Positions 33,043-49,531 of a stretch of DNA of 64,000 nt are shown here, one piece after another. The notes under the pieces are model-generated. The model was not told the DNA's origin, ran no database searches, and saw only the letters and a program-made list of their open reading frames with translations. The first letter of the stretch is position 1, and every line of letters begins with the position of its first letter. Source of the DNA: an uncultured Verrucomicrobiaceae bacterium (GTDB lineage Bacteria > Pseudomonadota > Gammaproteobacteria > Pseudomonadales > CAMLJR01); contig CAYLRA010000003.1 in the NCBI GenBank assembly GCA_964386045.1, positions 9,006-73,005 on the forward strand, written 5' to 3'. The position numbers and the translations under genes are program-made.

Positions 33043-33064
33043 GATGAACTCCGGAGCGATTTCA

Positions 33065-34708
33065 TTAGACCGGTAAAAGGGTGTAAAAAAGTACAAATCC
33101 CGCCATACATCCCAGCGGAGCCAAATGGCGACCCTGGGTTCGACCAAGAACAAATTCGCAGCTATACATCAGGACGCAGAGGCGCAGGACAATCTCTCCC
33201 ACAGCATGTCGACTGACTGACTCAATGGGGAGCAGCGGCACGGTGACGACGATAAGTAAAATCAGGAGATCCTGAGTGTCCAGCCTGAACTGCTCTCGCC
33301 GGGTCATACGGATGGCAAGGGCAAGAAGACAGGCCAATGCGACAAACAGTGCGTTGATCATCGACCCACTGCCCGAAAACTCTGTCGATGTGGACAGCAG
33401 GTAGGCGCTGAAGGCGCTGGCCGGGTAGACAAAAAGTCGGGTTATCCAGGGGGTCAGTCCGCGCGCCAGGAGGAAAATGACGAAAGATGCCGTCAATGCG
33501 ATTGACGCGTTGATAAAAGAGTGTGGGGAATCACGAGAAACCAGAGGAAGAGTCAGTGCGGCAGCGATTGCGACCTGGATGATGTAAGCGGAGTTGAGAT
33601 AGAACCACTTCATTTTTCTGAGAAGAAAGTTTCGTCTGTCTATGTGGTCACGTTGCGCCTCCTGCGTGTGAAATCTCCATTGGGATAGACGTGCCAGCTT
33701 GAGGGACCCAAGTAGAATTGCGCAGAACAGTGCGTAAATTGTCAGGAGGATCCAGTCTTCCGCATAACGAAAGAAAAATGCCAGTGACAGAAGGAGTATC
33801 TGGAGCAGATAAATGATTGCTACGGCCTCGTTGTGGCGGAAGCCCAGTGCGATGATCTGGTGATGAAGATGGTTCCTGTCCGGTGAAAATGGTGATCTTC
33901 CCTCCCGCAGACGAATGGTCATGACGGTCAGGGTATCGAGAACAGGCAGGCCAAGCAGGAGCAGAGGAAGTGCCGGGCTTACCGGGGCGGTATCGTGCTG
34001 GGATACCAGTATCGCCAGGCAGGCTGATAAAAAGCCGAGCAGCTGGCTGCCGGTATCACCCATGAAAATTTGCGCTGGATAGGTGTTGAATCGAAGAAAG
34101 CCGAGAACCCCGCCAATGGCTGTCAGGGCGATCAGCGTACTGAGCATGTCTTCCGCCAATAGTCCAATCAGGGCGATGGCGGATAGTGTCAGAAGCGAAG
34201 AGCCACCCGCCAATCCATCCAGCCCGTCCGTGAGATTGACGGCGTTGGTAACGCCGAGAATGAAAAAGAAGCTGACCACGCAACTGAGTACGGTGGGTGC
34301 TGCCTCAAAATCGAACAGTGGGAGGCGCTGCATGGTCACGCCGCCGATCAGAACAATCAGGCTTGCAACAATCTGGCCGATGAATTTCCAGCGGTAGTCC
34401 AGGTTGTATCTGTCGTCGAGAACGCCAAAGATGATGATTATCGCCGCACCGATAAACAGGGAAGCAAGCAGTCTGGTGTGGTCACCGAAGTAAAGTGATG
34501 AAAAGTAGACAAGCGGAATGGCGATGCCAATCGCCATGGCAATGCCACCGCTGCGCGGGATCGAATGCGCGTGCTGCTTGCGATTGGCATCCGGTTTGTC
34601 AAGCAATCCCAGCCTCGGTGCCAGGCGCATCGCGACTGGCATCAACGCAATCGTGAGAAATAGCGCAACGGTCAGGCTGTATGCGAGTTCCATGGCGTCA
34701 GGGGGCAT
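33065..34708 (-). CDS. Polyprenyl-phosphate hexosamine-1-phosphate transferase (GT4, WecA/MraY family) with an extra C-terminal membrane domain
   Basis: Motifs DKPDANRKQHAHSIPRSGG, VLDDRYNL, NAVNLTDGLDGLAGG, FMGDTGSQLLGF and PDRNHLHH all lie in the first ~300 aa. A further ~250 aa of hydrophobic segments follows. The start is ambiguous (34708 or 34693). Confidence 0.8.
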   Translation of the reverse strand: MPPDAMELAYSLTVALFLTIALMPVAMRLAPRLGLLDKPDANRKQHAHSIPRSGGIAMAIGIAIPLVYFSSLYFGDHTRLLASLFIGAAIIIIFGVLDDRYNLDYRWKFIGQIVASLIVLIGGVTMQRLPLFDFEAAPTVLSCVVSFFFILGVTNAVNLTDGLDGLAGGSSLLTLSAIALIGLLAEDMLSTLIALTAIGGVLGFLRFNTYPAQIFMGDTGSQLLGFLSACLAILVSQHDTAPVSPALPLLLLGLPVLDTLTVMTIRLREGRSPFSPDRNHLHHQIIALGFRHNEAVAIIYLLQILLLSLAFFFRYAEDWILLTIYALFCAILLGSLKLARLSQWRFHTQEAQRDHIDRRNFLLRKMKWFYLNSAYIIQVAIAAALTLPLVSRDSPHSFINASIALTASFVIFLLARGLTPWITRLFVYPASAFSAYLLSTSTEFSGSGSMINALFVALACLLALAIRMTRREQFRLDTQDLLILLIVVTVPLLPIESVSRHAVGEIVLRLCVLMYSCEFVLGRTQGRHLAPLGCMAGFVLFYTLLPV

Positions 34709-36305
34709 ACTTTGTCAGTGTGGGATAGAAGTCGCGCAGGAACTTCTGCAGGCGCTGGTCCGACGCCTCGATCGATGCTCCTTCGGGAACCATCGTCGTG
34801 ACACGTACCAGAGCGCCATCAGAGCGTGACTCCAGCAACGAGTCGACGAAGATGTACCACTTGGCCAGATACTCGTTGGTGATGTTCCTGCCGCGTCCTT
34901 CGAACCAGTAGTAGACGATCTGGGCGTGATGATCCTTGCGGATGATTGCCCTGTTGACGCGCAGGTTATTGCCACTGACATGCCTGACATCATCGATCGA
35001 GATCTGATCCAGTTCGTCCATTCGCCAGCCACCGCCGGGGATGCAGGATCGCGGTGAGTGTATCGATGCGCCTTTCTTCTGTGATGAGTACCAGGCGACA
35101 TACAGGTTGACTGGGGGATCAACGAGCGAAGTACTTGTGCTCCGGTAATCGGCAATGAGGTAGTCGGTCAGCTTGAGTGTGTCCAGGACATCGCGATCCA
35201 GGGCGCCCTCGCGACCGCTCCAGTCGGAGTACTGCAGCGGGAATAGTGAAAGCTTTTCCCGATTCTCGGGTGGCAGCTCTTCTCGGCCACCCAGCGTCAG
35301 AAGCCACGGGGTCATCAGCAACAGCAGGACGGTTCCGCCGAGCAGGGGCATCTGCCGAGAAGGGGATATCGGAAGATCACGCCACTTGAAATCGATTTTC
35401 GGGACATCCAGTTGAAGCTTGTCGAGTATCCGGCCCGGCGTACGAGAAATCTTGTGAAGCAGCATGGCCTCCAGCAGAAGGATGGCCAGACAGCTCATGA
35501 AGATGATCCATCCCTCGAAGTCGTGAAGGAATCCCTCCGCCATCTTGGCGCCCCAGCGATCGACGGTGATGCCGATCAGGCCGATACGGAAGCTATTCAT
35601 CAGCACGGTGATGGGAACGGTGGAAAGGAAAAGAACAGCGCGCTGCCAGAGGGGGGCTTTATAGATGCAGGCGATCAGGAAGCCGAAGCTCATCAAGGGA
35701 AAAAGATACCTGAGGCCGGAACATGCCTCGACCACCTGCAGCTTCATCGCACCGAGATCGATGACGTTGCCTTCCAGATACACAGAGATATCGAAGAGGC
35801 GAATCATCATCACGCCGATCTCTGACGAGATCAGCTGGAGCTGGCTCGACAGATTGAAGTAGATGAAGTTCGGCAGCGGAATCATGAAGATGAGATAGGC
35901 GAGCGGCGCCAGAAGCAGCCGGAATCCCGCTGTACCGAGAAAGCTCAGCACGAATGAAAAAAGTGCGACGAGGAATCCGTACTGGATGACGGTATAGATC
36001 GCGCTCATTTCGCCAAGCACGAAGAGAAATATCGCGAATGCCAGCAGGATGGGTCCCCACCAGGAACCTCGTATCTCCAGGCGTGCGAGATCGTTGATCT
36101 TCTGGTAGATCAGGAATGCGGATACAAACGGAATCATGTATCCATGGTTGTACTCTTCCCGGTCCCACCAGGAGACCATCAGCGCGAGGGAGTCGTAGCA
36201 GACCCACACGAGAACTGCCAGGAAGATGGCGCAGGCCGTCCAGACAAGCGGGGCGTATCTGGAATCTGTCGTCGATATTTTCAAGCTGGATTTATTGGTT
36301 TTCAT
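34698..36305 (-). CDS. xrtA: Exosortase A fused to an EpsI-family domain (XrtA-EpsI)
   Basis: 535 aa. Polytopic N-terminal half with the catalytic Cys motif VVEACSGLRYLFP, the Arg motif NSFRIGLIG and the His motif HDFEGW. The C-terminal half has the EpsI-type SIHSPRSCIPGGGW motif. Confidence 0.85.
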   Translation of the reverse strand: MKTNKSSLKISTTDSRYAPLVWTACAIFLAVLVWVCYDSLALMVSWWDREEYNHGYMIPFVSAFLIYQKINDLARLEIRGSWWGPILLAFAIFLFVLGEMSAIYTVIQYGFLVALFSFVLSFLGTAGFRLLLAPLAYLIFMIPLPNFIYFNLSSQLQLISSEIGVMMIRLFDISVYLEGNVIDLGAMKLQVVEACSGLRYLFPLMSFGFLIACIYKAPLWQRAVLFLSTVPITVLMNSFRIGLIGITVDRWGAKMAEGFLHDFEGWIIFMSCLAILLLEAMLLHKISRTPGRILDKLQLDVPKIDFKWRDLPISPSRQMPLLGGTVLLLLMTPWLLTLGGREELPPENREKLSLFPLQYSDWSGREGALDRDVLDTLKLTDYLIADYRSTSTSLVDPPVNLYVAWYSSQKKGASIHSPRSCIPGGGWRMDELDQISIDDVRHVSGNNLRVNRAIIRKDHHAQIVYYWFEGRGRNITNEYLAKWYIFVDSLLESRSDGALVRVTTMVPEGASIEASDQRLQKFLRDFYPTLTKYAP

Positions 36306-36396
36306 CTTGGCTGCATATGTCGTTCGTTAAAGTTTGGATTTCCTGCCGGCGAGCAGGTACGAAGGCCAGCGCTTTTGTTGATGACGGTCGACACCT

Positions 36397-37638
36397 TCAT
36401 CGCGAAATTCTCGACAAGCGCACGTGGGCGCTGGTAACGGCAAATCCGTAGGCGAGCAGCATGGGTATAGAAAGCCTTACGTAAAACCAGGCGTCTGCCG
36501 CAAGGTCGAATATGGCAAAGCTGATCAGCGCCGACAGTGTGATCGTGATCATGAAGGGCTGATGCTTTTTGAGACGTCTGTGCAGGTGCCACAGGCGGCT
36601 CAGAAGGGTGAACCACAAGTACAGGTATGCCAAAAGGGCTGGAAAACCAAAATCGCGGAGGATGAGGAGATACATGTTGTCAGCCCAGCCAACATCGACG
36701 CTCTTTGATGGGCCACGGCCTATCAGGATTTGATAGGGGCTTTCCAGAAGTTTCGACAGGAAGGCGCTCCACCAGGCGAAGCGAAGCTCCAGCGTGTGGG
36801 TGTTATCAAGGGAAAAGCGATCTGTGTTCGCGTAATAGTCGCTTATGAATATTCGGTATCCATAGTAGAGAGCAACGCCGACGACGAAAAATGCTGCGAT
36901 GACAATAGTGCGTTGACCGAGATTTGCACTCTTTCCGGTGTCTGTCAGAAGGTATCCCATCGCGGCCAGGCCGGAGACGCTCGCAATCATCGCTCCACGC
37001 GAGCCTGCCATTATGATTGCCACGAAAAGCAGCAATAGAATCACCAGCGCTGGGAGGCTGCGTCGAGCCACGGTTCGGTGGCAGCTGATGATCATGCCGA
37101 AGCCGAGCAAAAGCCCCCAGTAGTTTGGGTTTCCAAGTGTTCCAATGACTCTGCGCCAGCTGAAACCTTCTATCAGTTGCTCGTAATTGGCCGTGTAAAT
37201 GGGAACAGTGACTGCGTTGAGATTCATCCAGTTGAAATACTGAATGAAGCTTATTGCGATGGCGACAATGATGATTGCCCAGGTCAGAATTCTAAGAGTA
37301 AATCCTCCCCGGTAACTCAAGGCAAGCATGGCGCCGGAGATGATTGCACACGAATAGATGACGTACCGCAGCAGAATCAGGAAGTCTCGACCGGCAAAGT
37401 TTCCGCGCAGTAATATCTGGAATGCCAGTGTGACCGCGGCGAGCGTGATCAGAATAGCAATGATCGAGAGCTCTCGGCGAAACAGTTTGAATATCAGCCC
37501 GCCTTGACGTGACATCGCCCATACAGAGAAAAGCGATACGAGAAAATACTCAGGTCTGGCCAGCAGCGATGCCGGTACCAGGAAGCAGGAGAGAATGATG
37601 AGCAGCACTAAAGTCGTCGTCATGACTTTGCCTGGCAA
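36397..37638 (-). CDS. O-antigen-ligase/Wzy-like polytopic membrane protein (exosortase-locus type)
   Basis: 413 aa with about 10 or more hydrophobic segments, including a Wzy_C-like loop (GSRGAMIASVSGLAAMG). Its position between the ATPase and xrtA matches PEP-CTERM loci. The start is 37638 or 37623. Confidence 0.65.
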   Translation of the reverse strand: MPGKVMTTTLVLLIILSCFLVPASLLARPEYFLVSLFSVWAMSRQGGLIFKLFRRELSIIAILITLAAVTLAFQILLRGNFAGRDFLILLRYVIYSCAIISGAMLALSYRGGFTLRILTWAIIIVAIAISFIQYFNWMNLNAVTVPIYTANYEQLIEGFSWRRVIGTLGNPNYWGLLLGFGMIISCHRTVARRSLPALVILLLLFVAIIMAGSRGAMIASVSGLAAMGYLLTDTGKSANLGQRTIVIAAFFVVGVALYYGYRIFISDYYANTDRFSLDNTHTLELRFAWWSAFLSKLLESPYQILIGRGPSKSVDVGWADNMYLLILRDFGFPALLAYLYLWFTLLSRLWHLHRRLKKHQPFMITITLSALISFAIFDLAADAWFYVRLSIPMLLAYGFAVTSAHVRLSRISR

Positions 37639-37750
37639 TGGTGCCAGACCTCCCTGATCCGCCCGGCCAGGTACTCGGCCAGGTGGGTCAGCAACCGGGC
37701 GGTCGCCGAGTGAGCGGGGCGGCAGTGGCGACCGCAGAAGATGATTCGCG

Positions 37751-38659
37751 TCACGGCAGTAGACCGACCCTGATCAAATCGCGGTCGATGTCACCGAGCC
37801 GCTGCTCGTGCCTTGGATCGACGGCCGGTCGCGCCGCTGCCCTGGCGCTGGCCAGGAGCTGGCGACCTTTTGCCACTGCCTCGACGATCGACCGATCGAT
37901 TGCCTCACGCCCGTCGGCGAAGGCATATACCAATGCCTGATCACTCAAGGTGTTGATGAGACGCGGGACGCCGGCGCTGCATTCATACAGGGCATCCATT
38001 GCATCGGCATCGAACAGCGGTTGGGTGCGACCAGAGACCGCGAGCCGATGAAGGACGTAATCTTCGAGCTCGTTGCGTGTCAGCGGTTCGAGGTGGTACT
38101 CGACCGAGACCCGTTGTGCAATCTGGGAGAGTTTCGGTTGTGCAAGCTGTTCCCGAAGTTCGGGTTGACCGATCAGTACGATCTTCAACAGCTGGTCTTC
38201 ATCCGCATTGATGTTGCTCAGCAAGCGAATCTCTTCCAGTGCTTTGTCGGAGAGATTCTGCGCCTCGTCGACAATCAACAGAACCTGCCGGCCTTCAGCG
38301 TATTCAGTGATGACATACCGCTGAAAGTCGCGAAACAGCGAAATGCTTTCGCGCCCTTCAAACGGCAGGTCGAATGCCGAAGCGACCCAGCGGATGAGAT
38401 GCTGGTCGAAGTCGAGAGTGTTGTTCAGCAAGCCAACGCGGAACTGCTTGTCGTCGAGCTCACGCAGCAGTTGTCGAAGCAGGGTGGTCTTGCCGGCCCC
38501 GACATGGCCGGTCATCACCGTGATGCCGCCGCCGGCATCACCCAGGCCGTAGCGCAGCAGGTTGAGCGCCAGCTGGTGGCGTGGCGAGAGGTAGAGATAG
38601 CTCGGGTCTGGCGCCAGCTTGAAGGGCGGTCGCAGGAGACCAAAGTGCTCCAGATACAT
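37751..38659 (-). CDS. ExeA-like AAA ATPase (XrtA/PEP-CTERM system-associated ATPase)
   Basis: 302 aa. MYLEHFGLLRPPFKLAPDP opening, Walker A GHVGAGKTT and Walker B LLIVDEAQ. Confidence 0.8.
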   Translation of the reverse strand: MYLEHFGLLRPPFKLAPDPSYLYLSPRHQLALNLLRYGLGDAGGGITVMTGHVGAGKTTLLRQLLRELDDKQFRVGLLNNTLDFDQHLIRWVASAFDLPFEGRESISLFRDFQRYVITEYAEGRQVLLIVDEAQNLSDKALEEIRLLSNINADEDQLLKIVLIGQPELREQLAQPKLSQIAQRVSVEYHLEPLTRNELEDYVLHRLAVSGRTQPLFDADAMDALYECSAGVPRLINTLSDQALVYAFADGREAIDRSIVEAVAKGRQLLASARAAARPAVDPRHEQRLGDIDRDLIRVGLLP

Positions 38660-38663
38660 ACTG

Positions 38664-39488
38664 TCACCGCGCCTTGTTGAGGATGGTGCCGAGCAGAGGC
38701 GTGCCCTGCATCAGCTTGAGTGCGCGTTCGACATCGCTGCGACGGCTGACGCCATCTTCGACCACCATCAGCAGTGCGTCCGCGTAGGGTGCAAAGGTCA
38801 TGGCGTCGTCATCGTCGAGCACGGCTGGAAGATCGAAGATGATCAGCCGGGATTCGTAACGGTTGACGATGTCCTGCAGCAACATATTCATGCGCGGCGA
38901 GGAGAGCATCTCCGAGCGATGGCGGGAGCGACGGGCATTCGGCAGCACGACGAGCCGCTCGAAGCCCGGATTGACCAGTGCATCCTTCAGCTCGGCGCGC
39001 CCTTCGAGACAGTCGATCAGATCGCTTTCGACGTCGAGGCCCAGCTTTTCCGCGACGGTCGGGTTGCGCAGGTCGAGATCGACAAGAAGCACCGTCTGGT
39101 TGACCTCCTTCGACATCGAGATCGCGAGGTTGAGAGCGGTCAGGCTTTTGCCGGCGTGGCTGTTCGGGCTGGTGACCGCGAGTGTGCGCCAGCGGTTTTC
39201 GCGCATTTTCTGCAGCACCTGGGTGCGCAGCTGGCGGTAGACCTCGGCGCGCTGGTCGTTGTCGAAACCGGCGACCACCAGCTGGTTGAGCAGGTGCTGT
39301 GGATTTGGGCGCACGGTGCGGGTCTGGGTGTACTCGATTTTATTATTCGATGTCGACGGGCTGGGTCGCTGGCGTTGCGGCTCGGCGACCGCGGTGGTCT
39401 CTGCGCGATCACGCTGCTCTCTGGCCTTGTCGATGGCGCGTTGGATGAAGTCCATGGCAGGTTGCTCCAAAAGGTCTGTTCGACTCAA
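38664..39488 (-). CDS. Chain-length-determinant tyrosine-kinase-like ATPase (BY-kinase catalytic-domain type)
   Basis: 274 aa. P-loop TSPNSHAGKSLTALNLA and LLVDLDLRNP with MinD/ParA-like topology. Its start overlaps the upstream stop by 4 nt. Confidence 0.8.
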   Translation of the reverse strand: MSRTDLLEQPAMDFIQRAIDKAREQRDRAETTAVAEPQRQRPSPSTSNNKIEYTQTRTVRPNPQHLLNQLVVAGFDNDQRAEVYRQLRTQVLQKMRENRWRTLAVTSPNSHAGKSLTALNLAISMSKEVNQTVLLVDLDLRNPTVAEKLGLDVESDLIDCLEGRAELKDALVNPGFERLVVLPNARRSRHRSEMLSSPRMNMLLQDIVNRYESRLIIFDLPAVLDDDDAMTFAPYADALLMVVEDGVSRRSDVERALKLMQGTPLLGTILNKAR

Positions 39489-41233
39489 AGGCCAAGTTTG
39501 CGCAGCGCGACGAACCAGAGGACGTCGAGCGGCTTGTAGGCGATGTGGATCAGTGACAGCGTGATGATGACCAGCACCACGCTCGCGCCCAGCACGATCG
39601 CCCAGCGATACGAGGTTGCCGGGCGATCATCGCCGGCAGTGAACAACGGGATCGTGGCAAGTGGCGGGGCGGTGATGAGATCCGTCAGATCGCGCTCGCC
39701 ACGAATACTTTCGTCCATGATCTCGGCTGCCGCCACCATGCCGGCGCCGCAGAGCCCGGCAAGCAGCAGGCCAACCAGAATGATGGCTACACGGTTCGGA
39801 CTGACCGGCTCTTCGGGCCGGATCGGTGGTTCGATCAGCGTGAAACGCTCGCCCTTGCGTTCGGTTTCCAGGTTGCGTGCCAGCTCGGCCTGCAGCAGCT
39901 TGAAGCTGATCTCCTGGTATTTGGCCGTGGTCGTCGAGAGGTCGCGCATCAACTCCTGGTAACGTTTCTCGACATCCGGTGCCCTGGCGAGGTGGCTTTC
40001 GAAGCGGGTGATTTTCTCTTTCAGGTCAGCGGCTCGCTGCTCCAGCACGGCACTCTCTGCTTCGATGCTGCGGATCTGTGTGTGAAGCAATACGTAGGCC
40101 GGATTGTCTGCGCGTGGTGCGGTAATGCTGTCGGGGGCGGTGGGATTGGCCGCAAGCGAACTGACCAGACGCTGCTGCTGCAGAACCTCGGGATGGTCGG
40201 GTTGATAGCTGCGCTGCAGCTGCGCCAGTTTGTCCCGCTCGGCCTGCAATATTTTGAGCTGGGTATCGTCACTGCTGTCGCCGAGTTCGCGGCGCAGCGT
40301 CTCCACTTCGCGCTGCAGGCGACGTATGTCGGGATGGTTGTCGTTGTAGACCGAACTTTTACTGCGCAGCTCGGATTCCAGTGCGCGAAGGCGATCCTGA
40401 TCGCCGAGTACCATCTCGCCAGTCGGTAGCGTGGTGGGTGCATAGGGGCTGAGCTGGGCTATGTTGGCCTGCAACTCCAGCCGGCGCTTGGCCAGCTCGG
40501 AGAGGCGCATACGGGTGTCGCGCAGCTCGGCGTCGGTGCGCTCGACGACATTGATGTTGTACTGATAGAGCTCGGGCAGTGCCCCTTCGTTGGCTTGCTT
40601 GAAATTCGAAAGCTCCTGTTCAAGATCGAGAATTCGCTGATTCAGTGCTCCCGACTCGCTTTTCAGGAACTGCGAGGTGGTGGCAGTTTTTTCGGAGCGG
40701 GTCTTCAGGTTTTCGTTCAGGTAGAGACTGACCAGCTCATTGGCGACTCGGCGGGCGATATCGGGGTTGCGATGGTCAAAGGCGAGCTTGAAGGCGATGG
40801 TGGCCTCCATCGGGCGACCAATGCGCGGATCGATTACTTCGGCGCTGACCAGCTCCAGCCCCATGTCGCGCTGGAAGTCCTTCATGATTTCGGTGCGGGG
40901 CGTGCGCTTGAGTTCTACCTCATCCAGCAGGCCATATTTCTCGACAATGCCGATGACGTTGGCAAGGGTCATCGTGCGCTGGGTGATGACGTTGATCTGC
41001 TGGTTCGCGTAACCGGTGATGGTGGAGCGCACCAGATCCTGCGGGATCTCCTGCTCCTCGATCAGTATCGTGGCGCTGGAGCGGTATTTGGCGGGCCACA
41101 GCAGTGCCGTGAGCAGAGCCAGCACCATAACGATCGCAGCCGGAATGAAAAACAGCTTGCGTCGGCGGAGGAATATCCGACGCAGATCATTTGCCGAGAG
41201 TTGTTTCTCGTCGAAATCCATGGCCATGTTCAT
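39485..41233 (-). CDS. Polysaccharide chain-length determinant (Wzz/GumC-like, PEP-CTERM locus type)
   Basis: 582 aa. N-terminal TM plus the PAKYRSSATILIE Wzz motif, a long coiled-coil periplasmic region and a C-terminal TM (VAIILVGLLLAGLCGAG). Confidence 0.8.
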   Translation of the reverse strand: MNMAMDFDEKQLSANDLRRIFLRRRKLFFIPAAIVMVLALLTALLWPAKYRSSATILIEEQEIPQDLVRSTITGYANQQINVITQRTMTLANVIGIVEKYGLLDEVELKRTPRTEIMKDFQRDMGLELVSAEVIDPRIGRPMEATIAFKLAFDHRNPDIARRVANELVSLYLNENLKTRSEKTATTSQFLKSESGALNQRILDLEQELSNFKQANEGALPELYQYNINVVERTDAELRDTRMRLSELAKRRLELQANIAQLSPYAPTTLPTGEMVLGDQDRLRALESELRSKSSVYNDNHPDIRRLQREVETLRRELGDSSDDTQLKILQAERDKLAQLQRSYQPDHPEVLQQQRLVSSLAANPTAPDSITAPRADNPAYVLLHTQIRSIEAESAVLEQRAADLKEKITRFESHLARAPDVEKRYQELMRDLSTTTAKYQEISFKLLQAELARNLETERKGERFTLIEPPIRPEEPVSPNRVAIILVGLLLAGLCGAGMVAAAEIMDESIRGERDLTDLITAPPLATIPLFTAGDDRPATSYRWAIVLGASVVLVIITLSLIHIAYKPLDVLWFVALRKLGL

Positions 41234-41262
41234 CGGTTGGGGGCTTCCATATTTGCTTGAGT

Positions 41263-42513
41263 TCAGCGTGACCAGCGTTTTTCGGTCGGCTTCCAGATGA
41301 CGCCGAGCCTGGCGACATGCGAGTCGATAGGGTCGCCATTCTCATACTGCTGTGAGCGGTACTGATAACTGCACTGCAGCGACCAGTGCTCATCGAGCTG
41401 GTGGCCGTAGGTCAGCGTGCCGTAGTGATAGTCGCGCGAAGGGTTGAAGCGGTTGCTGGGGTAGTTGCCGGAGACTTCATTGTTGCCGACGGTAACCTTG
41501 GCCGACAGCGTGCCCTGTTCGAACAGGCGGTGGCTCCATTCGAGATCGAGCTGCTCGGAGACCTGCACATAACCAACGGACGAGGGCTGGGTGCGCCGGG
41601 AGATGCGCGTGCTCAGTGTGTTGCGGGTTGTGCGCCAGCTCAGCGATCCGTCAATCGTCGTTAGTTTCGAGGTCGACTCTTCGAGTGTACAGAGCGGGAA
41701 CAGGGGGAGCAGCTCGAACTCCTCGGCGAAGGAGCAGACGTCGGCAGGGTCCTGCACGCTGGGTGTCGATTCATTGCGCGAGCGACCAGCCATGAGGGAA
41801 AGGGTCAACGTTTCGGAAATCTGGTATTCACCACCCAGCAGCAGCCCCCACTCCGTGGAGCGGGTATCGTAGCTCTGGCCGGCTGCCGCGACGATGGTGT
41901 CGGACTGATAGTCCGAGTAGACCAGTTGCGCGAAGGTGCTCAAGCGTTCGTTGAGGGCGTGGCTCCAGAGCAGGCTGCTGTTCCAGTATTGGTAGTCGAC
42001 ATAACCGTCGTCGAGGTAGCGGCTGTCGATGAAGCTGGCGCGCAGTATCAGCAGATCGTGCTCGCTGATCTGGTACTCCGCATAGGGTGTGATGGTGTAC
42101 TGCTCATGCCTGCCGGCACTGCCGACACGACCGCTGTCGAGAAGCTCGCTGGTCAGTGTCGAATTGCGCACGCCGCTCAGGTCCAGCCCGATCGCGCTGC
42201 GTTGCCATTGGTGGCGGGTACGCACATTGAGCGTCTGGTCGTCGCTGTCCAGACCTTCCATGCCGTATCGGCGCGACAGCAGGGTCAGGTCGACGTTTGC
42301 ATTGGTGGTTTCGCTGTTCATGCCGGCGTCAAGTCTCGCGGCTGCCAGATGCCCCGCGCTCGACTGGGCCGGTTCGCTCATCAGCAGGTTGCTGTCGTGA
42401 TTGGCCTCCAGTCGCAAATGTCCCCCGACGCGATATTCGGTGGCGCCGCTCGCATTTGCCATGAGCAGTAGAGCCATCGACAGAAGATGGGGGCGTATCC
42501 CTCGGCCTTTCAT
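41263..42513 (-). CDS. Predicted outer-membrane beta-barrel protein of the PEP-CTERM locus
   Basis: 416 aa. Signal peptide (LLSMALLLMANASGA), then alternating-polarity strands rich in Y/W/S/T. ATGA overlap with the export gene. Its position matches the uncharacterised beta-barrel of exosortase loci. Confidence 0.55.
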   Translation of the reverse strand: MKGRGIRPHLLSMALLLMANASGATEYRVGGHLRLEANHDSNLLMSEPAQSSAGHLAAARLDAGMNSETTNANVDLTLLSRRYGMEGLDSDDQTLNVRTRHQWQRSAIGLDLSGVRNSTLTSELLDSGRVGSAGRHEQYTITPYAEYQISEHDLLILRASFIDSRYLDDGYVDYQYWNSSLLWSHALNERLSTFAQLVYSDYQSDTIVAAAGQSYDTRSTEWGLLLGGEYQISETLTLSLMAGRSRNESTPSVQDPADVCSFAEEFELLPLFPLCTLEESTSKLTTIDGSLSWRTTRNTLSTRISRRTQPSSVGYVQVSEQLDLEWSHRLFEQGTLSAKVTVGNNEVSGNYPSNRFNPSRDYHYGTLTYGHQLDEHWSLQCSYQYRSQQYENGDPIDSHVARLGVIWKPTEKRWSR

Positions 42514-43094
42514 GGCACGACCACAATGTCGCCGCTGTGGAGAAGGGAGTTGTTGCTGAGGCCTTCGCCCTGCTTGACGTCGCCATAGCGGAATCGGCGT
42601 GAGTGCTGCGTGCCGTTGGCGTCGCGGTGCAGAACGTTGATGGAATTCTCGGCGGCAAAAGCATTGAGACCGCCCGCGAGGGCCAGTGCCTGCATTACGT
42701 CGATCGGCTGGGTGATCGGGTATTCGCCGGGGCGATTGACCTTGCCCAGTACATAGATCTTGTAGCCGGAGGTCTGGCGCAGCGAGACGGTGACGGTCGG
42801 TTCGTCGCGCAGGTAGCGGGTGAGTGCCTGGGAGATATCTGCCTCGATATCGGCGATGTTCCGGCCGCGTGCATGAACATGGCCGGCGAGGGGGACGGAG
42901 ATCCCGCCGTCGGGCCTGACCAGCACTTCCCGGCTGAGCGTCTCTTCGTTCCAGATGAATACCTCCAGAATGTCACCGGCGTTTACAGCGTAGCCATCAG
43001 GCGCGGATGGTCGCTGGTCATCGGCAGCAGCGCCGGCGCAGGCCAGGACGGAGATGGCGAGAAGGAATGCGCGTACAAACAGGTTCTTGAACAT
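42510..43094 (-). CDS. Periplasmic polysaccharide export protein (Wza-N/Poly_export + SLBB, EpsE-like)
   Basis: 194 aa with a signal peptide. GYAVNAGDILEVFIWNEE...VRPDGGISVPLAGHVHARGRNIADIEADI is the Poly_export signature. Confidence 0.8.
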   Translation of the reverse strand: MFKNLFVRAFLLAISVLACAGAAADDQRPSAPDGYAVNAGDILEVFIWNEETLSREVLVRPDGGISVPLAGHVHARGRNIADIEADISQALTRYLRDEPTVTVSLRQTSGYKIYVLGKVNRPGEYPITQPIDVMQALALAGGLNAFAAENSINVLHRDANGTQHSRRFRYGDVKQGEGLSNNSLLHSGDIVVVP

Positions 43095-43940: not shown

Positions 43941-44749
43941 GGTCGTTCTCCAGAAATGGTTGGGGGTTCCGTGTGGTTCCGTTTGGTTGAACGGAATATG
44001 TATAAGCATCCTTGGTAGATGAACCTCTGGACAGGTTGGCGGAGCCTCACGCTTCTCGCACTTCGAATGCTCAGGGAATGAATTTCGCGTAAATATAAAG
44101 TGCACGCTTCTATTCCATTGGGTTGTTATTTTCTTTGTGTATCTGCGCCGTTATACGTTGACACTCTATCAATCCAAACACACTCAATATAAGTGCCACC
44201 GGCGAAGATAGTTTTGTTATTCAATGGAATACATCTCATCCCGATCGCTTTGTTTTCTTCCGTGTAAAGAATCGTGACGGCGCAAATGGCGAATCCATGC
44301 AGGCTGTCGCGTCGCCGGAATATACATCAAATGCCGCTCCGTAAATAAACCGTCCATCGTTTGGTTTTGCGATCGACGTGTCACCAATTTGCTGGCTTTA
44401 CGTCACCAGCTTGCATAACGCTACCTCACCCATGCGGGCAATTGTGTGATTGAAACCAAAAATTCATAGATAGATTGCATGACAAACGTCATCCATTTGG
44501 ATGGCGATATTTTCATGGGTGTGTCACCTGTCCTGCGTAGATTCCGGAAGGTCCGATGGCGGTGTCCTGGCATCGGCGGCTCCGGGAGTCGCGCCTACTG
44601 GCTCAGCAGCATGCGTTCGTAACACGGTTTGTCGGTCGCTTGCATTGCCAGATATTCAATAAAGATTCACCGGAACCGCCTGTACCTGACATCTGCCTCC
44701 GCGATAACTGCTGCGGACTGCAGCCGGGATATTTTTTCCGGATGTGGTC

Positions 44750-44845
44750 GGACAACGGAACTGCCACCCCCGTCGCGAGGCGGGCTCGGAAAGCCACGGG
44801 TCTCTTGTTGGACAGTTGGGGAGAGACGGCCGGGTTGCCACCGTG
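44750..44845 (+). promoter_or_regulatory. c-di-GMP-I (GEMM-I, type 2)-like riboswitch aptamer, copy 1
   Basis: UGCCACC-CCCGUC-GCGA-GGCGGG-CUCGG-AAAGCC-A-CGGGUCUC-loop-GAGAC-GG-CCGGGUUGCC. Contains a GNRA-capped helix, a second long helix and the AAAGCC / GGGUUGCC junction strands in GEMM-I order. Sits 135 nt upstream of a PEP-CTERM CDS, and a second copy is at 47690. Confidence 0.6.
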
Positions 44846-44979
44846 AAAGCGAAGGAGCGGGTCGCGTGGCAGTTCAGTTCGTGCAGGACCGCTGCGTACC
44901 AGCCTCCTTCGAAAAGCGTCGCTTCTTGTTGCATTGATGCACAACGCACTTTTCACAGGCACCTTTGGAGGATTTGGTA

Positions 44980-45777
44980 ATGAAGAAAGCAGTTTTGGCA
45001 CTGACGGCATCGCTGGCGGTCGTCTCCGGCGCGAATGCGGCCTGGGATCCGGGCACCGAGGGAAGCTATTCGATCGGCAATGGTGAGCTGCTGCTCTCCA
45101 TCTACGATCCGGTCAACCAGCACTCCTACAGCCATGACCTGGGCATCCGTTTCGACGATATCCGCGCCGGTACCGTCAATACGACGATCGCGCTCGACCC
45201 GGCCCATCTGGCCGTATTCGGTGGCGACTTCAGCAACGTGCGGTTCGATGTTTTCGCGGCGAGCAACAGGGTCGAGGCCGACGGGGGTAATACGTTTATT
45301 GCCACCAACGCGGGCATCATGTACTCCCTGCAGGCTGGCCAGACTCCGTTCGGGACTGACGCGAACACCAACGTGGCGGTCGTCAGCAACTACTGGGGTC
45401 TGTTCCAGCAGAATGCGGTTGGCATCGGCTTCAATATTTCTCCCGACGAAAACCCCGTCACCAGCCGGGCCAATGGCGCGCCCGGCTATGCCTACGCAGA
45501 GGGCGAGTGGTCGCACTTTTGGGAGTTCAACTTCAATCGCCGTACCAGCGGTACCGACGGCGAAACCATCGAGCTGTGGCTTAAGGGCTTCACTCAGGAT
45601 GACGGTTACGGCGATCCGCTCGATCTGCTGGTGGGTCACATCACGCTGAACCTGACTGGCGAAGGCGGTCCTTCGGTGCACGTCGCCGCCGTGCCGATTC
45701 CGGCCGCCGGCTGGCTGCTGGGCTCCGCGCTGCTCGGTCTGGGGGGCATCGCCCGCCGCCGTCGCTCGCAGGCCTGA
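44980..45777 (+). CDS. Secreted PEP-CTERM-anchored protein (substrate 3)
   Basis: ATG at 44980 with GGAGGA 7 nt upstream. Signal peptide MKKAVLALTASLAVVSGANA. Textbook C-terminus VPIPAAGWLLGSALLGLGGIARRRRSQA. Confidence 0.8.
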   Translation: MKKAVLALTASLAVVSGANAAWDPGTEGSYSIGNGELLLSIYDPVNQHSYSHDLGIRFDDIRAGTVNTTIALDPAHLAVFGGDFSNVRFDVFAASNRVEADGGNTFIATNAGIMYSLQAGQTPFGTDANTNVAVVSNYWGLFQQNAVGIGFNISPDENPVTSRANGAPGYAYAEGEWSHFWEFNFNRRTSGTDGETIELWLKGFTQDDGYGDPLDLLVGHITLNLTGEGGPSVHVAAVPIPAAGWLLGSALLGLGGIARRRRSQA

Positions 45778-45805
45778 TCCACTCGATTCACTTTCTGGGA
45801 TAACA

Positions 45806-45826
45806 CCCCCCGGCTTCGCCGGGGGG
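45806..45826 (+). other. GC-rich intercistronic hairpin
   Basis: CCCCCCGGC-TTC-GCCGGGGGG, with no T-run. Lies between PEP-CTERM gene 3 and the next CDS (GGAGGA at 45843). Confidence 0.4.
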
Positions 45827-45853
45827 GCAATCACGACTTGTGGAGGAAACACC

Positions 45854-47410
45854 ATGAAACTGAAAGCGCTCTCGATCGCCGTCGCCGCCAGCTCGCTGCT
45901 GGCCGGCGCGGCCCACGCCATCGTGCCGAACGCCGCCAGCGGCTTCGAGGCACTCGCTGTCTCCGCCAACGCCAAGCTCTACGCGGCCGGCGCATCGGCC
46001 CAGGATGGCGCGGTCATCGGCCATGTGCTGAGCAACCTGTGCGTCAGCGACCGCGACCTCTATACCGACCGCACTCCCGCCCAGATCACCGCGGGCACCT
46101 TTGTCGGCAGCAACGATACCTCCGTCGCCTGCGTCGTCTCCGAATCCGCGCTCGGCGCTGATCTCAACGGCAACGGCAATACGGCCGACAGCGCCCCCTT
46201 CCTGTTTCGCAAACTGACCGCCGGCGGCTCTGCCAACGGTGTCATTCCGGTGGCCAATGGCACGCCGGCCACCGCCGCCTCTCGCGCGATCAACACCAGC
46301 AACTGCCAGCAGGTGGGCGCCACCCACACCGTTCTGGGCACCCCGGGCGTCCGCGTCTGGAGCTGCGGCACCGCCGGCCAGCAGGCCGTCATTCCGACCG
46401 TCGGCCTGGCCGATGTCGAGCCCGAGCTGTTCGCCGAGGGTGGTCCGAACGCCATCGGCTCGTTCAATCTGGCCAACATCGACACGCTGCCGACGCTGTC
46501 GCTGACCTTCGGCGTGCCGGTCACGCTGAACCTGCGCAATGCGCTGCAGCAGGCACAGGGGCTGACCTCCGGCTCCGATGCGTTGGCCGACATGCCGTCG
46601 CTGACCAGCGCCCAGCTCACCAGCCTGTACAGCGGCAAGATCGGCAGCTGGAATAGCTTCGAGAACGCCGCTGGTGCCAAGCTGCCGGCGCTGGCCACAG
46701 TCGGGCCGGTGAACGACCGCGTCCATGTCTGCCGCCGCACCGTTGGCTCTGGCACCCAGGCCACCGTCAACGCACTGTTCCTGTCTAACCCGTGCGGTCC
46801 GGGCCGGATTGCACCGGCAGTGGACAACACCGCGCAGACAGCGACCGATGGTACGGGCAACTACGCCACTCTGCCGTTCGGTGGTGCCGCCGCCATTCAC
46901 GAGCTTGCGAGCTCCGGCGGTGTGAATACCTGCCTCGATACGCTGCAAACCCAGAACCGCTGGGGTATCGGTATCCAGACGCTGGAGCAGGGCAACAACA
47001 ACTGGCGTTTCATCAAGGTCGATGGCTACGCGCCGACGCTGGAGAACGTCGCCGCCAACAAGTACTCCTTCTGGGCTGAAAACGTCATCACGGTGCGGTC
47101 GAACCAGGCTGCCAACAGCGTCTCCAGGGCGTTCTTCACCGGCTTCCGCCCGGCACAGGATCTGGCCGAGCTGAACGCGACGTTCAACCCGCGCATCACC
47201 GAGGTCTCCGCGTCGATTGCCAACGGTCGCTGCGACAATGGTGAAACCTGCGTTGGCTACCTCTATCCGTTCAATTACACGGGTGGCGCGGTGCCAGCTC
47301 CGTTCCAGAACAGCGTGCCGACGATGTCGGCCACCCGCGCCGGTCTTTCCGGCCAGGGCGCTCCCAGCATGTGCCGTCCCTCGATCATCCAGACCGATTC
47401 GGTGCTGTGA
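45854..47410 (+). CDS. Secreted periplasmic-binding-protein-like (PstS-type fold) protein with no transporter partner in the window
   Basis: 518 aa. Signal peptide MKLKALSIAVAASSLLAGAAHA. PstS-like segments include LTSAQLTSLYSGKIGSWNS, RRTVGSGTQATV and IKVDGYAPTLENVAANKYSFW. Family assignment is by pattern only. Confidence 0.5.
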   Translation: MKLKALSIAVAASSLLAGAAHAIVPNAASGFEALAVSANAKLYAAGASAQDGAVIGHVLSNLCVSDRDLYTDRTPAQITAGTFVGSNDTSVACVVSESALGADLNGNGNTADSAPFLFRKLTAGGSANGVIPVANGTPATAASRAINTSNCQQVGATHTVLGTPGVRVWSCGTAGQQAVIPTVGLADVEPELFAEGGPNAIGSFNLANIDTLPTLSLTFGVPVTLNLRNALQQAQGLTSGSDALADMPSLTSAQLTSLYSGKIGSWNSFENAAGAKLPALATVGPVNDRVHVCRRTVGSGTQATVNALFLSNPCGPGRIAPAVDNTAQTATDGTGNYATLPFGGAAAIHELASSGGVNTCLDTLQTQNRWGIGIQTLEQGNNNWRFIKVDGYAPTLENVAANKYSFWAENVITVRSNQAANSVSRAFFTGFRPAQDLAELNATFNPRITEVSASIANGRCDNGETCVGYLYPFNYTGGAVPAPFQNSVPTMSATRAGLSGQGAPSMCRPSIIQTDSVL

Positions 47411-47514
47411 TCGCGGCAGTCTGATATCGGTACCGTGTGATATCGGTGACAGCGTGTTGTGATATCGGCAACAGAAAGTCGCCAAAGGCCCGGTGCAATG
47501 CCGGGCCGCGTTTG

Positions 47515-47544
47515 GAAGCCGGGATATTTCCCGGCTTCTTTTTT
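47515..47544 (+). terminator. Rho-independent terminator
   Basis: GAAGCCGGGA-TATT-TCCCGGCTTC followed by TTTTTT. It separates the PEP-CTERM/PBP-like transcription unit from the TPS leader. Confidence 0.85.
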
Positions 47545-47689
47545 CAACGTATGAAAAATGTATGTCGTTTTGTCATCGGTTCGTATTTCGATGCGACGAC
47601 AGGATGCGTGAAATAAAGTTCAGGAAATTTCTGCGTTTTCACAAAAGGTTCAACGCAACGTCATCTGCGCCGGCTACCTTGGCGCAGCG

Positions 47690-47775
47690 TTTTCGAGTGC
47701 CACCCCCGTCGCGAGGCGGGTCCGGAAAGCCGCGGGTCTCGTCCCCTGATGAGACAGCCGGGCTGCAATGTGTCT
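47690..47775 (+). promoter_or_regulatory. c-di-GMP-I (GEMM-I, type 2)-like riboswitch aptamer, copy 2
   Basis: Shares an identical 23-nt core (TGCCACCCCCGTCGCGAGGCGGG) and the CGGAAAGCC, CGGGTCTC, GAGAC and GCCGGG blocks with copy 1. The second-helix loop differs in length (10 vs 18 nt) and one pair changes G-U to G-C. Sits about 115 nt upstream of tpsB. Confidence 0.6.
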
Positions 47776-47890
47776 GCATGAACAACGGGCCTGTCGTCGC
47801 ACTTCGCAGTGCCTGATTCCATATCGAGATTCCATTGCCCGTCGCGCTGGTTAAAAAGGGGCGGCAAGGAGCTCGTTTATTGTCCGGGAA

Positions 47891-49531
47891 ATGGAATCGA
47901 TGAGTTTCGGTAATGCTGGGGGTGCGACGGATTCATCGCGCGGTGCGTCGGGATTTTTTCTCGCCCGGTTGCTCGTTGCGATCGCGTTTTCAATCGCGTT
48001 TTTGATCGTCCTCACCTCCCGATCCGTCGCCGATGAGGTGGAGAGCCGCTTCGATATCTGGGAGTACCGCATCGAGGGAAACTCGCTGCTCGATACCGAC
48101 AGGATCGAACTGGCGGTGACGCCGTATCTGGGACCGCAGCGACTGATCGAGGATGTCAACGAGGCGGCGGCCAATCTCGAGCGCACCTATCGCGACGGTG
48201 GCTACCCGACCATCTACGTCGACATTCCGGAGCAGGATGTGGTCGGCGGCGTCGTCACGCTGCGCGTCGTCGAGGGCAGGCTCGACCGCGTGCGGATCGA
48301 GGGGTCGCGTTACTTCACCCTTTCCGGCATCCGCCACAGGATGCAGTCGCTGGAGTCGGGCAAGCCGCTGCATGTGCCGACCATGCAGCGGGAGCTGCAC
48401 GCACTCAATGCGCTGTCGCCCGACCTGAAGGTGGTGCCGGTATTGAAGCAGGGCCGCACGCTGGGCGCCGTCGATCTCGATCTGAAGGTCAACGACCAGC
48501 TGCCGCTGCACGGTTCGGTCGAGCTGAACAACTACAACTCGGCCAACACCAGCGATACGCGCCTTGGCGTCTCGCTCAGCTACGACAACCTGTGGCAGAA
48601 GCAGCACAGCTTCGGCATGCAGTGGCAGACCTCGCCGGAGGATATGGATGAGGTCGACGTGCTGGTCGGCACCTATATCGCGCCGTGGTTCGACAGCGGC
48701 AATCGCATCGCCGCCTATATCGTCGATTCCAGCTCCAATGTCGCTTCCGTCGGCGATATCAACGTGATCGGCGACGGCACCATCTACGGCGTGCGGTTCG
48801 TCATGCCGCTGCCCTCCGGGCGCGACTTTTTCCACTCGCTGAACCTGGGCGCGGATTACAAGGACTACAACGAGATCATCCGCCTCGACGTCGAGAGCGC
48901 GATCCAGACACCGATCGACTATCTGGTCTGGTCGCTCCAGTACAACGCCACGCAGATGCGCGAGAAGAGTCGGGTGCAGTGGAATGTCGGTGCCAATTTC
49001 GGCGTTCGCGGCATCGGCAACTCCGACGAGGAGTTCTTCGACAAGCGCAGTTCGGCCCACAGCAATTTCGTCTACCTGCGCGCGTCGATGCAGCGCACCG
49101 ATCTGCTGCCGCGGGACTGGCAGCTGCGCTCTACCGTCCGAGCCCAGCTCAGTGATTCGCCGCTGATCAACAACGAACAGTTCAGCCAGGGCGGCGTGAG
49201 CAGCGTGCGTGGCTACTACGAGTCACAGGCGCTCGGGGACGACGGCATCGGCATCGGTTTCGAAGTGCGTACACCGCATCTGCTGACGAGGTTCGACGCG
49301 ATCGACGAGCTGCGCCTGCTCGCCTTCCTGGAAGGGGCGCATCTGCGGGTGCAGGAGCCGCTGCCCGATCAACTGGACGAAGTGAATCTGGCCAGCGTCG
49401 GCGTCGGCCTCGCCGTATCGGCGCGCAGGCAGCTGCATCTCTCGCTGAACTGGGGTTTCGCGCTGCGCGACAACGGCGGGATCGACGCTGGCGATGACCG
49501 TCTCAACGCCGGACTGGAATGGAAATTCTGA
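47891..49531 (+). CDS. TpsB transporter (ShlB/FhaC/HecB family, POTRA + 16-strand Omp85-type barrel)
   Basis: 546 aa. Signal/TM FFLARLLVAIAFSIAFLIVLTSRSVA. POTRA-like FDIWEYRIEGNSLL...VTLRVVEGRLDRVRIEGSRYF. C-terminal barrel ending ...GLEWKF (aromatic terminus). The exact start is uncertain. Confidence 0.85.
   Translation: MESMSFGNAGGATDSSRGASGFFLARLLVAIAFSIAFLIVLTSRSVADEVESRFDIWEYRIEGNSLLDTDRIELAVTPYLGPQRLIEDVNEAAANLERTYRDGGYPTIYVDIPEQDVVGGVVTLRVVEGRLDRVRIEGSRYFTLSGIRHRMQSLESGKPLHVPTMQRELHALNALSPDLKVVPVLKQGRTLGAVDLDLKVNDQLPLHGSVELNNYNSANTSDTRLGVSLSYDNLWQKQHSFGMQWQTSPEDMDEVDVLVGTYIAPWFDSGNRIAAYIVDSSSNVASVGDINVIGDGTIYGVRFVMPLPSGRDFFHSLNLGADYKDYNEIIRLDVESAIQTPIDYLVWSLQYNATQMREKSRVQWNVGANFGVRGIGNSDEEFFDKRSSAHSNFVYLRASMQRTDLLPRDWQLRSTVRAQLSDSPLINNEQFSQGGVSSVRGYYESQALGDDGIGIGFEVRTPHLLTRFDAIDELRLLAFLEGAHLRVQEPLPDQLDEVNLASVGVGLAVSARRQLHLSLNWGFALRDNGGIDAGDDRLNAGLEWKF

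Follow-up and report, generated by a model that had tools for sequence, protein, structure and literature searches.

Class-I cyclic di-GMP (c-di-GMP) riboswitches are exemplified by Vc2 and Vc1 of Vibrio cholerae (Rfam RF01051, the GEMM-I family). Their aptamers have a core of two hairpins joined by AAA, a GNRA-class tetraloop and three pocket bases, and they lie in 5' untranslated regions (5'-UTRs) associated with envelope and adhesion genes. All of these features recurred in the leader described here, which is part of a stretch of 64,000 nucleotides (nt) of contig CAYLRA010000003.1 (hereafter the window) and holds a GEMM-I aptamer match at positions 47689-47770. The leader precedes a two-partner secretion (TPS) operon, which shares with the described FhaC/FhaB and ShlB/ShlA pairs a TpsB transporter (POTRA_2 and ShlB domains) and a giant TpsA whose N-terminus carries a TPS domain. 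The aptamer is an ordinary member of a known riboswitch family, and its conserved gene association is the more interesting part.

Identity and conservation of the aptamer

The identity of the element was evaluated via covariance-model searches. Positions 47689-47770 on the + strand matched RF01051 over the full length of the model (1-87), with 43.5 bits (gathering score 35); the E-value of 3.4e-05 was scaled to 64 kb, both strands and 4227 families. A GEMM-I riboswitch had been proposed at this place in the initial annotation, which was made from the letters alone, and the family search bore this proposal out. An Rfam 15 scan of the whole 64-kb window at curated thresholds yielded only two hits, each of them to RF01051 on the + strand. 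The c-di-GMP-II family (RF01786), which had been named as the contrast, gave no match at the gathering threshold in the window and none even at E <= 10 in 47600-47900. The resemblance of 47689-47770 to RF01051 beyond chance was confirmed. On the coding strand, the aptamer belongs to a 5' leader: 130 nt separate it from the TpsB start downstream, and the terminator of the preceding unit (47514-47545) lies before it.

The stretch 47699-47766, whose earlier transcription was correct to the letter, reads G47699, CC, ACC, CCCGUC-GCGA-GGCGGG, UCC, GG, AAAGCC, G, CGGGUCUC, the 10-nt GUCCCCUGAU, GAGAC, AG, CCGGGCU and GC (ending at 47766). The first hairpin, CCCGUC-GCGA-GGCGGG at 47705-47720, is capped by the GNRA-class tetraloop and flanked by an ACC/UCC internal loop and by CC 47700-01, which pairs with GG 47724-25. 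The second hairpin occupies 47728-47764, and near its base lies an AG bulge (47756-57). All 22 pairs of the Rfam-derived structure were standard in the window. The candidate pocket bases G47699, A47726 and C47766, which had been picked out by eye beforehand, were all placed at canonical consensus positions in the covariance-model alignment; we take them to correspond to G20, A47 and C92 of Vc2. The AAA linker between the hairpins (47726-47728) was kept in 28/28, 28/28 and 27/28 of the aligned homologues, and it is virtually invariant in GEMM-I (PMC1950547). The positions of the 11-nt tetraloop receptor were deleted in the alignment. Since the receptor is expected only with GAAA loops, its loss was not counted against RF01051 membership. 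A GYRA loop without the receptor, together with an AG bulge near the hairpin base, is a documented GEMM layout according to the original description of the motif (PMC1950547), as the initial annotation had stated. That annotation had also found no convincing closing helix. Directly beside the core this was accurate, with only UU 47692-93 and AA 47767-68 paired in the model alignment; further out, a displaced closing helix of 8 bp is possible between 47688-95 and 47779-87 (CGUU 47688-91 with AACG 47784-87 and UUCG 47692-95 with UGAA 47779-82).

A covariance model made from the two window aptamers was searched against 104 loci encoding TpsB relatives (L001-L104). An aptamer lay immediately upstream of TpsB in six of them (L001, L083, L097, L098, L100 and L104), and the TpsB proteins of these loci were 61-79% identical to that of the window. 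The Rfam model RF01051 was above threshold at this position in L001, L083, L097, L098 and L104, and the truncated aptamer of L100 was detected only by the window-derived model. In an alignment of 28 aptamer homologues that had itself been fitted to the model, 95.7% of the cells were paired and both-sided changes occurred in 12 of 22 pairs. None of 500 shuffles reached the observed pairing and covariation, and the signal was lost when the 3' partners were slid by 1-3 columns. For the second hairpin (47728-47764), the corresponding values in the same homologues were 93.9% of cells paired and both-sided changes in 8 of 14 pairs. Moreover, the gene order of a ~265-aa (amino acid) protein, a ~520-aa protein, TpsB and TpsA was common across Gammaproteobacteria, and GEMM-I aptamers took three alternative places in this cluster. 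The commonest was before the 265-aa PEP-CTERM gene; the others were immediately before TpsB and downstream of TpsB, in the latter case mostly directly before TpsA, in several Methylococcaceae. The calls at all three places were supported by the Rfam model above threshold, and up to three aptamer copies were found per locus (L042). The segment 47689-47770 is very probably a canonical class-I c-di-GMP riboswitch aptamer of the G/A/C type, which would bind c-di-GMP.

Two other explanations of the match were weighed. The element could be a specificity variant of the GEMM-I fold, of the c-di-GMP-I-GGC or the 3'3'-cyclic GMP-AMP (cGAMP) type, with a ligand other than c-di-GMP. The GGC family RF03167 shares the compact receptor-less architecture, and its raw score on 47689-47770 exceeded that of RF01051 (51.1 vs. 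43.5 bits). The pair beside the pocket is C-G in the window instead of the consensus G-C of RF01051, and some relatives have U at the C92 position. However, 51.1 bits falls short of the gathering score of RF03167 (59), and the window carries A47726, as in the RF01051 consensus GACGC-A-AA and not as in the RF03167 consensus GACGC-G-AA. The raw score is also undiagnostic: since the aptamers at L069 7676-7754 and L042 8011-8089 pass the RF03167 threshold yet carry A rather than G, the bit score within this Rfam clan does not identify the GGC variant. Membership of 47689-47770 in RF03167 was rejected, the score being below threshold and the diagnostic G absent. The cGAMP-sensing members of GEMM-I carry A in place of G20; this marker is absent here, where G47699 is present, 27 of 28 homologues have G and C47766 is canonical. 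A variant ligand is accordingly regarded as highly improbable. The second explanation is a decayed, non-regulatory copy, i.e., a duplicate of the upstream aptamer that matches the model and controls nothing. The close similarity of the two window aptamers in the core, the poor closing helix directly beside the core of 47689-47770 and the lack of an aptamer directly upstream of TpsB in the close relatives L099, L102, L084 and L101 would suit such a copy. We nevertheless give decay very little credence, as 47689-47770 has kept every conserved core position and every pair, and the aptamer is kept before TpsB in six other loci, five of which (not L104) also have a conserved downstream hairpin and terminator. 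The canonical aptamer remains the preferred identification.

A separate observation concerns the pocket in the relatives. In 7 of the 28 homologous aptamers, U replaces C at the C92-equivalent (UGU, not UGC), and G20 and A47 are kept. These seven copies may have an altered or relaxed ligand specificity.

Expression platform and direction of control

The region between the aptamer and TpsB was compared in six leaders (window, L001, L083, L097, L098 and L100; L104 was left out). The order of parts was common to all six: aptamer, variable hairpin, a hairpin of the form CGGGCCUGA...UCAG(C)GCC, an A/U-rich spacer, a stem with a U tract and a ribosome-binding site. We propose that the window leader would act by transcription attenuation. 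Without ligand, the anti-aptamer strand CGGGCCUGUC (47786-95) would invade the aptamer by pairing with its central strand GGCGGGUCCG (47715-24), and GCACUU (47799-804) would pair with GAGUGC (47695-700). The freed aptamer strands would compete with the terminator arms, and RNA polymerase would read through. With c-di-GMP bound, the aptamer would be locked, and a local hairpin (47787-47814) would take up the invading strand. The terminator (47825-47875 followed by UUUAUUGU) would then form, and transcription would stop before TpsB (OFF).

The pairings that this scheme needs were stronger than expected from shuffled sequences in most leaders. The duplex of 47786-47795 with 47715-47724 comprises 10 bp at -19.4 kcal/mol, an energy matched by only 0.6% of the partner strands after shuffling. 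The anti-aptamer core CGGGCCUG was conserved in five of the six leaders, and central and anti-aptamer strands paired more strongly than the shuffles in five of six (p = 0.002-0.04); in L097 the register was shifted and eight pairs were kept. The duplex of the sequestering hairpin had an energy of -13.0 kcal/mol in the window (p = 0.04) and was likewise stronger than shuffles in 5/6 leaders. GCACUU 47799-47804 has an alternative partner in GAGUGC 47695-47700, and the resulting helix adjoins and extends the anti-aptamer helix. The fold with both of these pairings had an energy of -78.6 compared with -79.3 for the free minimum. Since AGUGCC occurs both in the aptamer (47696-701) and, as a repeat, at 47808-813, GCACU has two possible partners. 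The initial annotation had read the complementarity of GCACUU to GAGUGC and to AGUGC 47808-47812 as the competing helices of an expression platform. Both pairings are present in the sequence and the idea holds, with the 10-bp helix as the larger competitor; the leader terminator had gone unmentioned.

Hairpins with U tracts equivalent to this terminator were found at the same place in L001, L083, L097, L098 and L100. A terminator consensus scan missed 47825-47883; its rule of a 3-8 nt loop would exclude the larger loop. Minimum-energy folding of 47685-47900 gave a z-score of -0.02 and was uninformative on structure. The ribosome-binding region lies within the motif UUGUCCGGGAA, which was conserved in the window, L001 and L097.

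Some further features of the leader were noted in passing. The 9-mer CCCGUCGCG of the first aptamer hairpin (47705-47713) recurs in the terminator 5' arm (47839-47847). This repeat and that of AGUGCC may be strand mimics used in switching, or chance occurrences in a GC-rich sequence; the chance estimate for one shared 9-mer was about 0.04-0.1. In the region 47866-47903, a perfect AAGGAG lies inside the terminator 3' arm, 8 nt before a TTG at 47880. The TTG opens a 7-codon frame whose stop, TGA 47901-03, overlaps the TpsB ATG at 47900. Unlike the motif UUGUCCGGGAA, this frame was not conserved in L001 or L097.

The direction of control is the weakest step of the proposal, and OFF polarity is given an even chance or slightly better on the basis of folding models. 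The terminator probability in the free fold was compared with that in a fold in which the aptamer and the pocket were enforced. Because enforcing the aptamer removes competitors of the terminator and so biases the plain comparison toward the terminator, dinucleotide-shuffled linkers with the aptamer and terminator fixed were used as the control. The probability increased from 0.03 to 0.83 in the window (3% of shuffled linkers with as large a rise), from 0.68 to 0.96 in L083 (1%), from 0.35 to 0.88 in L097 (17%) and from 0.27 to 0.96 in L098 (15%), and it was 0.98 in both states in L001 (34%). The value decreased in none of the five leaders on enforcing the aptamer and pocket. In L083, the freed hairpin arm GCGCCUG was perfectly complementary to CAGGCGC in the terminator 3' arm (p = 0.007), giving a chain of partners from the aptamer strand to the anti-aptamer strand, the GCGCCUG arm and the terminator 3' arm. 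The even number of alternations in this chain implies an OFF switch. The initial annotation had implied that the ligand switches the adhesin on; this was unsupported, and the folding analysis leans toward OFF. Two other calculations did not discriminate. Forcing the anti-aptamer strand to pair upstream vs. downstream in equilibrium folds made no difference for the window or L001, and the pairing of upstream 16-mers with the window terminator arms peaked at up to -18.9 kcal/mol, which was not clearly past the GC-rich shuffle background (5th percentile -17.7).

Several points weigh against OFF polarity. It rests on equilibrium folding of ~190-nt RNAs with an assumed 5' end. The window result needs G47699, A47726 and C47766 to be kept unpaired and a 5' end at 47687, and without the pocket constraint the terminator probability was low in both states. 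In the window, the freed hairpin arm was not significantly complementary to the terminator (p = 0.78). Two home-made barrier-limited co-transcriptional simulations were unstable and varied with the 5' end and the barrier; the terminator never formed in them, and they were discarded. Furthermore, the Methylococcaceae loci with an aptamer between TpsB and TpsA show clear ON logic: the 3' strand of the aptamer, GUUGCC, has its complement in the ribosome-binding region AAGGCAAC; in L043 this strand serves as the 5' arm of a terminator. ON control by terminators that overlap the second hairpin is a common GEMM design (PMC1950547). The adjoining exosortase/PEP-CTERM polysaccharide genes point to a function in biofilms, where c-di-GMP would usually be expected to activate.

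The last three points are also those in favour of the same riboswitch with ON polarity, in which the ligand would promote either read-through into TpsB and TpsA or their translation, a reading that we hold to be possible and rather doubtful. One route to it would be pairing of GCAAUG.. (47765-82) with ..CAUUGC (47833-38) of the terminator 5' arm, with the hairpin 47787-47814 nested inside; the ligand-free anti-aptamer fold would topologically exclude this pairing. When G47765 and C47766 were left free, the aptamer-enforced minimum-energy fold did hold the GCAAUG/CAUUGC antiterminator, and the terminator probability was only 0.13. However, this antiterminator uses C47766, which the ligand should occupy, and the terminator formed (0.83) once the pocket was constrained, contrary to ON control. 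The aptamer and the terminator of the window also do not overlap. In L001, L083, L097 and L098, no similar antiterminator confined to the bound state was present, and the linker-shuffle test pointed to OFF in every informative leader. OFF polarity is therefore kept as the working proposal.

Operon, promoter and genomic neighbourhood

The coordinates of the leader parts, the operon and the neighbouring features are given in Table 1. The domains of TpsB, TpsA, the ExbB fusion and ExbD were found in the genes downstream of the leader, in agreement with the TPS/ExbBD operon named in the initial annotation. The TpsA start overlaps the TpsB end, and the start of the ExbB fusion overlaps the TpsA stop; these overlapping junctions support a single operon. 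Homologues of TpsA and of the ExbB fusion, at least 19 of each, apparently lie on the same contigs, which suggests that the two are linked. In the cultured Oceanicoccus sp. KOV_DT_Chl (L105, 1-12256), a DUF3739 TpsA is directly followed by a DUF2341-LamG-ExbB fusion and ExbD, and this organism could serve as an experimental host for the system. A recent survey (PMC12505986) explicitly names the DUF2341 extension at the N-terminus of MotA/ExbB-family proteins as unexplained.

Table 1. Positions of features in the window, with aptamer copies of related loci in the last row.
Feature	Position	Strand	Remarks
c-di-GMP-I (GEMM-I) aptamer	47689-47770	+	RF01051; covariation in 28 homologues
Linker replacing the variable hairpin of the relatives (weak in the window)	47767-47785	+	Holds part of the 3' strand (47779-47787) of the possible closing helix
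Central aptamer strand GGCGGGUCCG	47715-47724	+	Alternative partners: within the aptamer, or the anti-aptamer strand
Anti-aptamer strand CGGGCCUGUC	47786-47795	+	5' arm of the conserved hairpin
Sequestering hairpin, second half	47799-47814	+	GCACU 47799-803/AGUGC 47808-12; CAG-U-GCCU 47807-14/GGGCCUG 47787-93
Intrinsic terminator	47825-47883	+	Stem 47825-47843/47858-47875 (-20.3 kcal/mol), then UUUAUUGU 47876-47883
Ribosome-binding region	47886-47902	+	GGGAA 47886-90, ATG 47891, ATG 47900
TpsB outer-membrane transporter	47900-49531	+	POTRA_2 and ShlB domains; 543 aa, database start ATG 47900
TpsA, 3576 aa	49519-60249	+	N-terminal TPS domain, C-terminal DUF3739
DUF2341, Laminin_G_3, MotA/ExbB fusion, 614 aa	60246-62090	+	Domain matches
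ExbD/TolR family protein	62093-62497	+	
Weak TonB/TolA-like protein	62557-63207	+	TonB_2 E = 0.004 (misses the Pfam cut-off), TolA E = 3e-4
Conserved promoter-like block	47638-47680	+	Alignment of six leaders with the aptamer before TpsB
Sister c-di-GMP-I aptamer (copy 1)	44753-44842	+	RF01051 47.3 bits; 2.9 kb upstream of the 47689-47770 copy
VPLPA-CTERM/PEP-CTERM-sorted protein, 265 aa, signal peptide	44980-45777	+	ATG 44980; downstream of copy 1
PstS-like binding-protein homologue, 518 aa	45854-47410	+	Second gene of the copy 1 unit
Strong terminator ending the copy 1 unit	47514-47545	+	
PEP-CTERM/exosortase exopolysaccharide locus	30616-43094	-	
Aptamer copies with U at the C92-equivalent	L001 5697-5779; L058 2942-3028; L072 2909-2996; L042 2986-3072 and 957-1037; L044 3277-3355; L038 7440-7517		

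The window contig is of metagenomic origin (SRR16797988), and the nearest named relatives were metagenome-assembled genomes of Spongiibacteraceae. A sister metagenome contig (L082, SRR16798008) encodes an identical TpsB and a different TpsA, of 3550 vs. 3576 aa. The L082 TpsA starts 66 nt past TpsB, whereas that of the window overlaps TpsB. The difference points to strain-level variation in the giant TpsA.

The promoter-like block upstream of the aptamer contains three direct repeats 11 bp apart (TTCAC 47638, TTCAA 47649 and GTCAT 47660) and, 10 nt past them, the -10-like TACCTT (47675-47680). This arrangement predicts a transcription start near 47687, at the aptamer edge. The block presumably resembles the activator-dependent promoters of the OmpR/PhoB family, which have a Pho box in place of the -35 element. 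A sigma-28-like reading (TCAA-N15-GCCGGCTA) is possible and leaves the conserved CGTCA in the spacer unexplained. A sigma-54 reading of 47638-47680 was rejected, the match being judged poor, and a sigma-70 consensus scan of 44300-48100 gave no sites.

Upstream, the sister aptamer (copy 1) leads the unit of the PEP-CTERM-sorted and PstS-like proteins. About 110 nt downstream of its 5' strand GAACUGCCAC lies GUGGCAGUUC, a perfect complement of 10 bp. This complement is flanked by CGAAGGAG and CUCCUUCG, and the GGAGG ribosome-binding site is matched by CCUCC as well. A GAACUGCCAC/GUGGCAGUUC switch of 10 bp driving an anti-Shine-Dalgarno cascade was considered and found unsupported, the accessibility of the ribosome-binding site in equilibrium folding being alike with and without the enforced aptamer (0.60 against 0.52). 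A weak match to the Xanthomonas small RNA sX12 (33.6 bits vs. a gathering score of 106) was found at 47485-47545. It falls on the hairpins at the end of the upstream operon, among them the strong terminator at 47514-47539, and is probably a terminator resemblance only. Farther upstream, the exopolysaccharide locus encodes an EpsH-DUF3485 exosortase (34698-36305), Wzy-like, Wzz/GNVR and P-loop ATPase proteins, a Poly_export/SLBB exporter, a family 4 glycosyltransferase and an 845-aa TPR protein.

Significance and comparison with known systems

As a routine match to a curated family, the aptamer alone adds little to riboswitch biology. Its value may lie in being a functional clue: judged from the sequence, it would bring a gene set that is widely conserved and uncharacterised directly under the control of a second messenger. 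This set comprises the PEP-CTERM protein, the PstS-like protein, TpsB, the giant DUF3739 TpsA, the DUF2341-LamG-ExbB fusion and ExbD. Moreover, the variable placement of the aptamer, possibly with opposite polarities, is a natural experiment on the evolution of expression platforms. A joint reading of all parts is offered as a speculation that is unlikely to hold. According to it, the riboswitch would be one of the control points of an envelope machine, conserved and uncharacterised, whose genes adjoin a PEP-CTERM/exosortase matrix locus. TpsB would export a giant DUF3739 TpsA fibre, and this fibre would be coupled to its own proton-motive-force motor, formed by the DUF2341-LamG-ExbB fusion, ExbD and the TonB/TolA-like protein. 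Aptamers would act at three positions of the cluster across Gammaproteobacteria, possibly with opposite polarities, and the window operon would be repressed by c-di-GMP and transcribed from an activator-dependent, Pho-box-like promoter. If this were true, the fibre would be expressed at low c-di-GMP and would not be a classical biofilm adhesin. The searched literature contained no description of a combination of TpsB and a DUF3739 TpsA with a DUF2341-LamG-ExbB fusion, ExbD and a TonB/TolA-like gene, and nothing linking c-di-GMP riboswitches to two-partner secretion, filamentous haemagglutinin, TonB-type motors or adhesin, which does not prove novelty.

The leader differs from Vc2 and Vc1 in its GYRA loop without the 11-nt receptor, a known sub-layout, in the C-G instead of G-C pair adjacent to the pocket and in an apparent lack of a strong closing helix directly beside the core. 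Its expression platform is long (~115 nt) and contains an extra inverter hairpin before the terminator. An unusually long platform combined with a class-I aptamer and rho-independent termination is shared with Bc1 of Bacillus thuringiensis (PMC11218506). Bc1 is described as having two terminators, whereas the window leader has one together with the anti-aptamer strand and the sequestering hairpin, and the organism and regulated genes of Bc1 are unrelated to those of the window. On the side of the regulated proteins, the operon departs from FhaC/FhaB and ShlB/ShlA beyond the shared transporter and TPS domain: the TpsA of the window ends in DUF3739 and is followed by the DUF2341-LamG-ExbB fusion, ExbD and the TonB/TolA-like gene.

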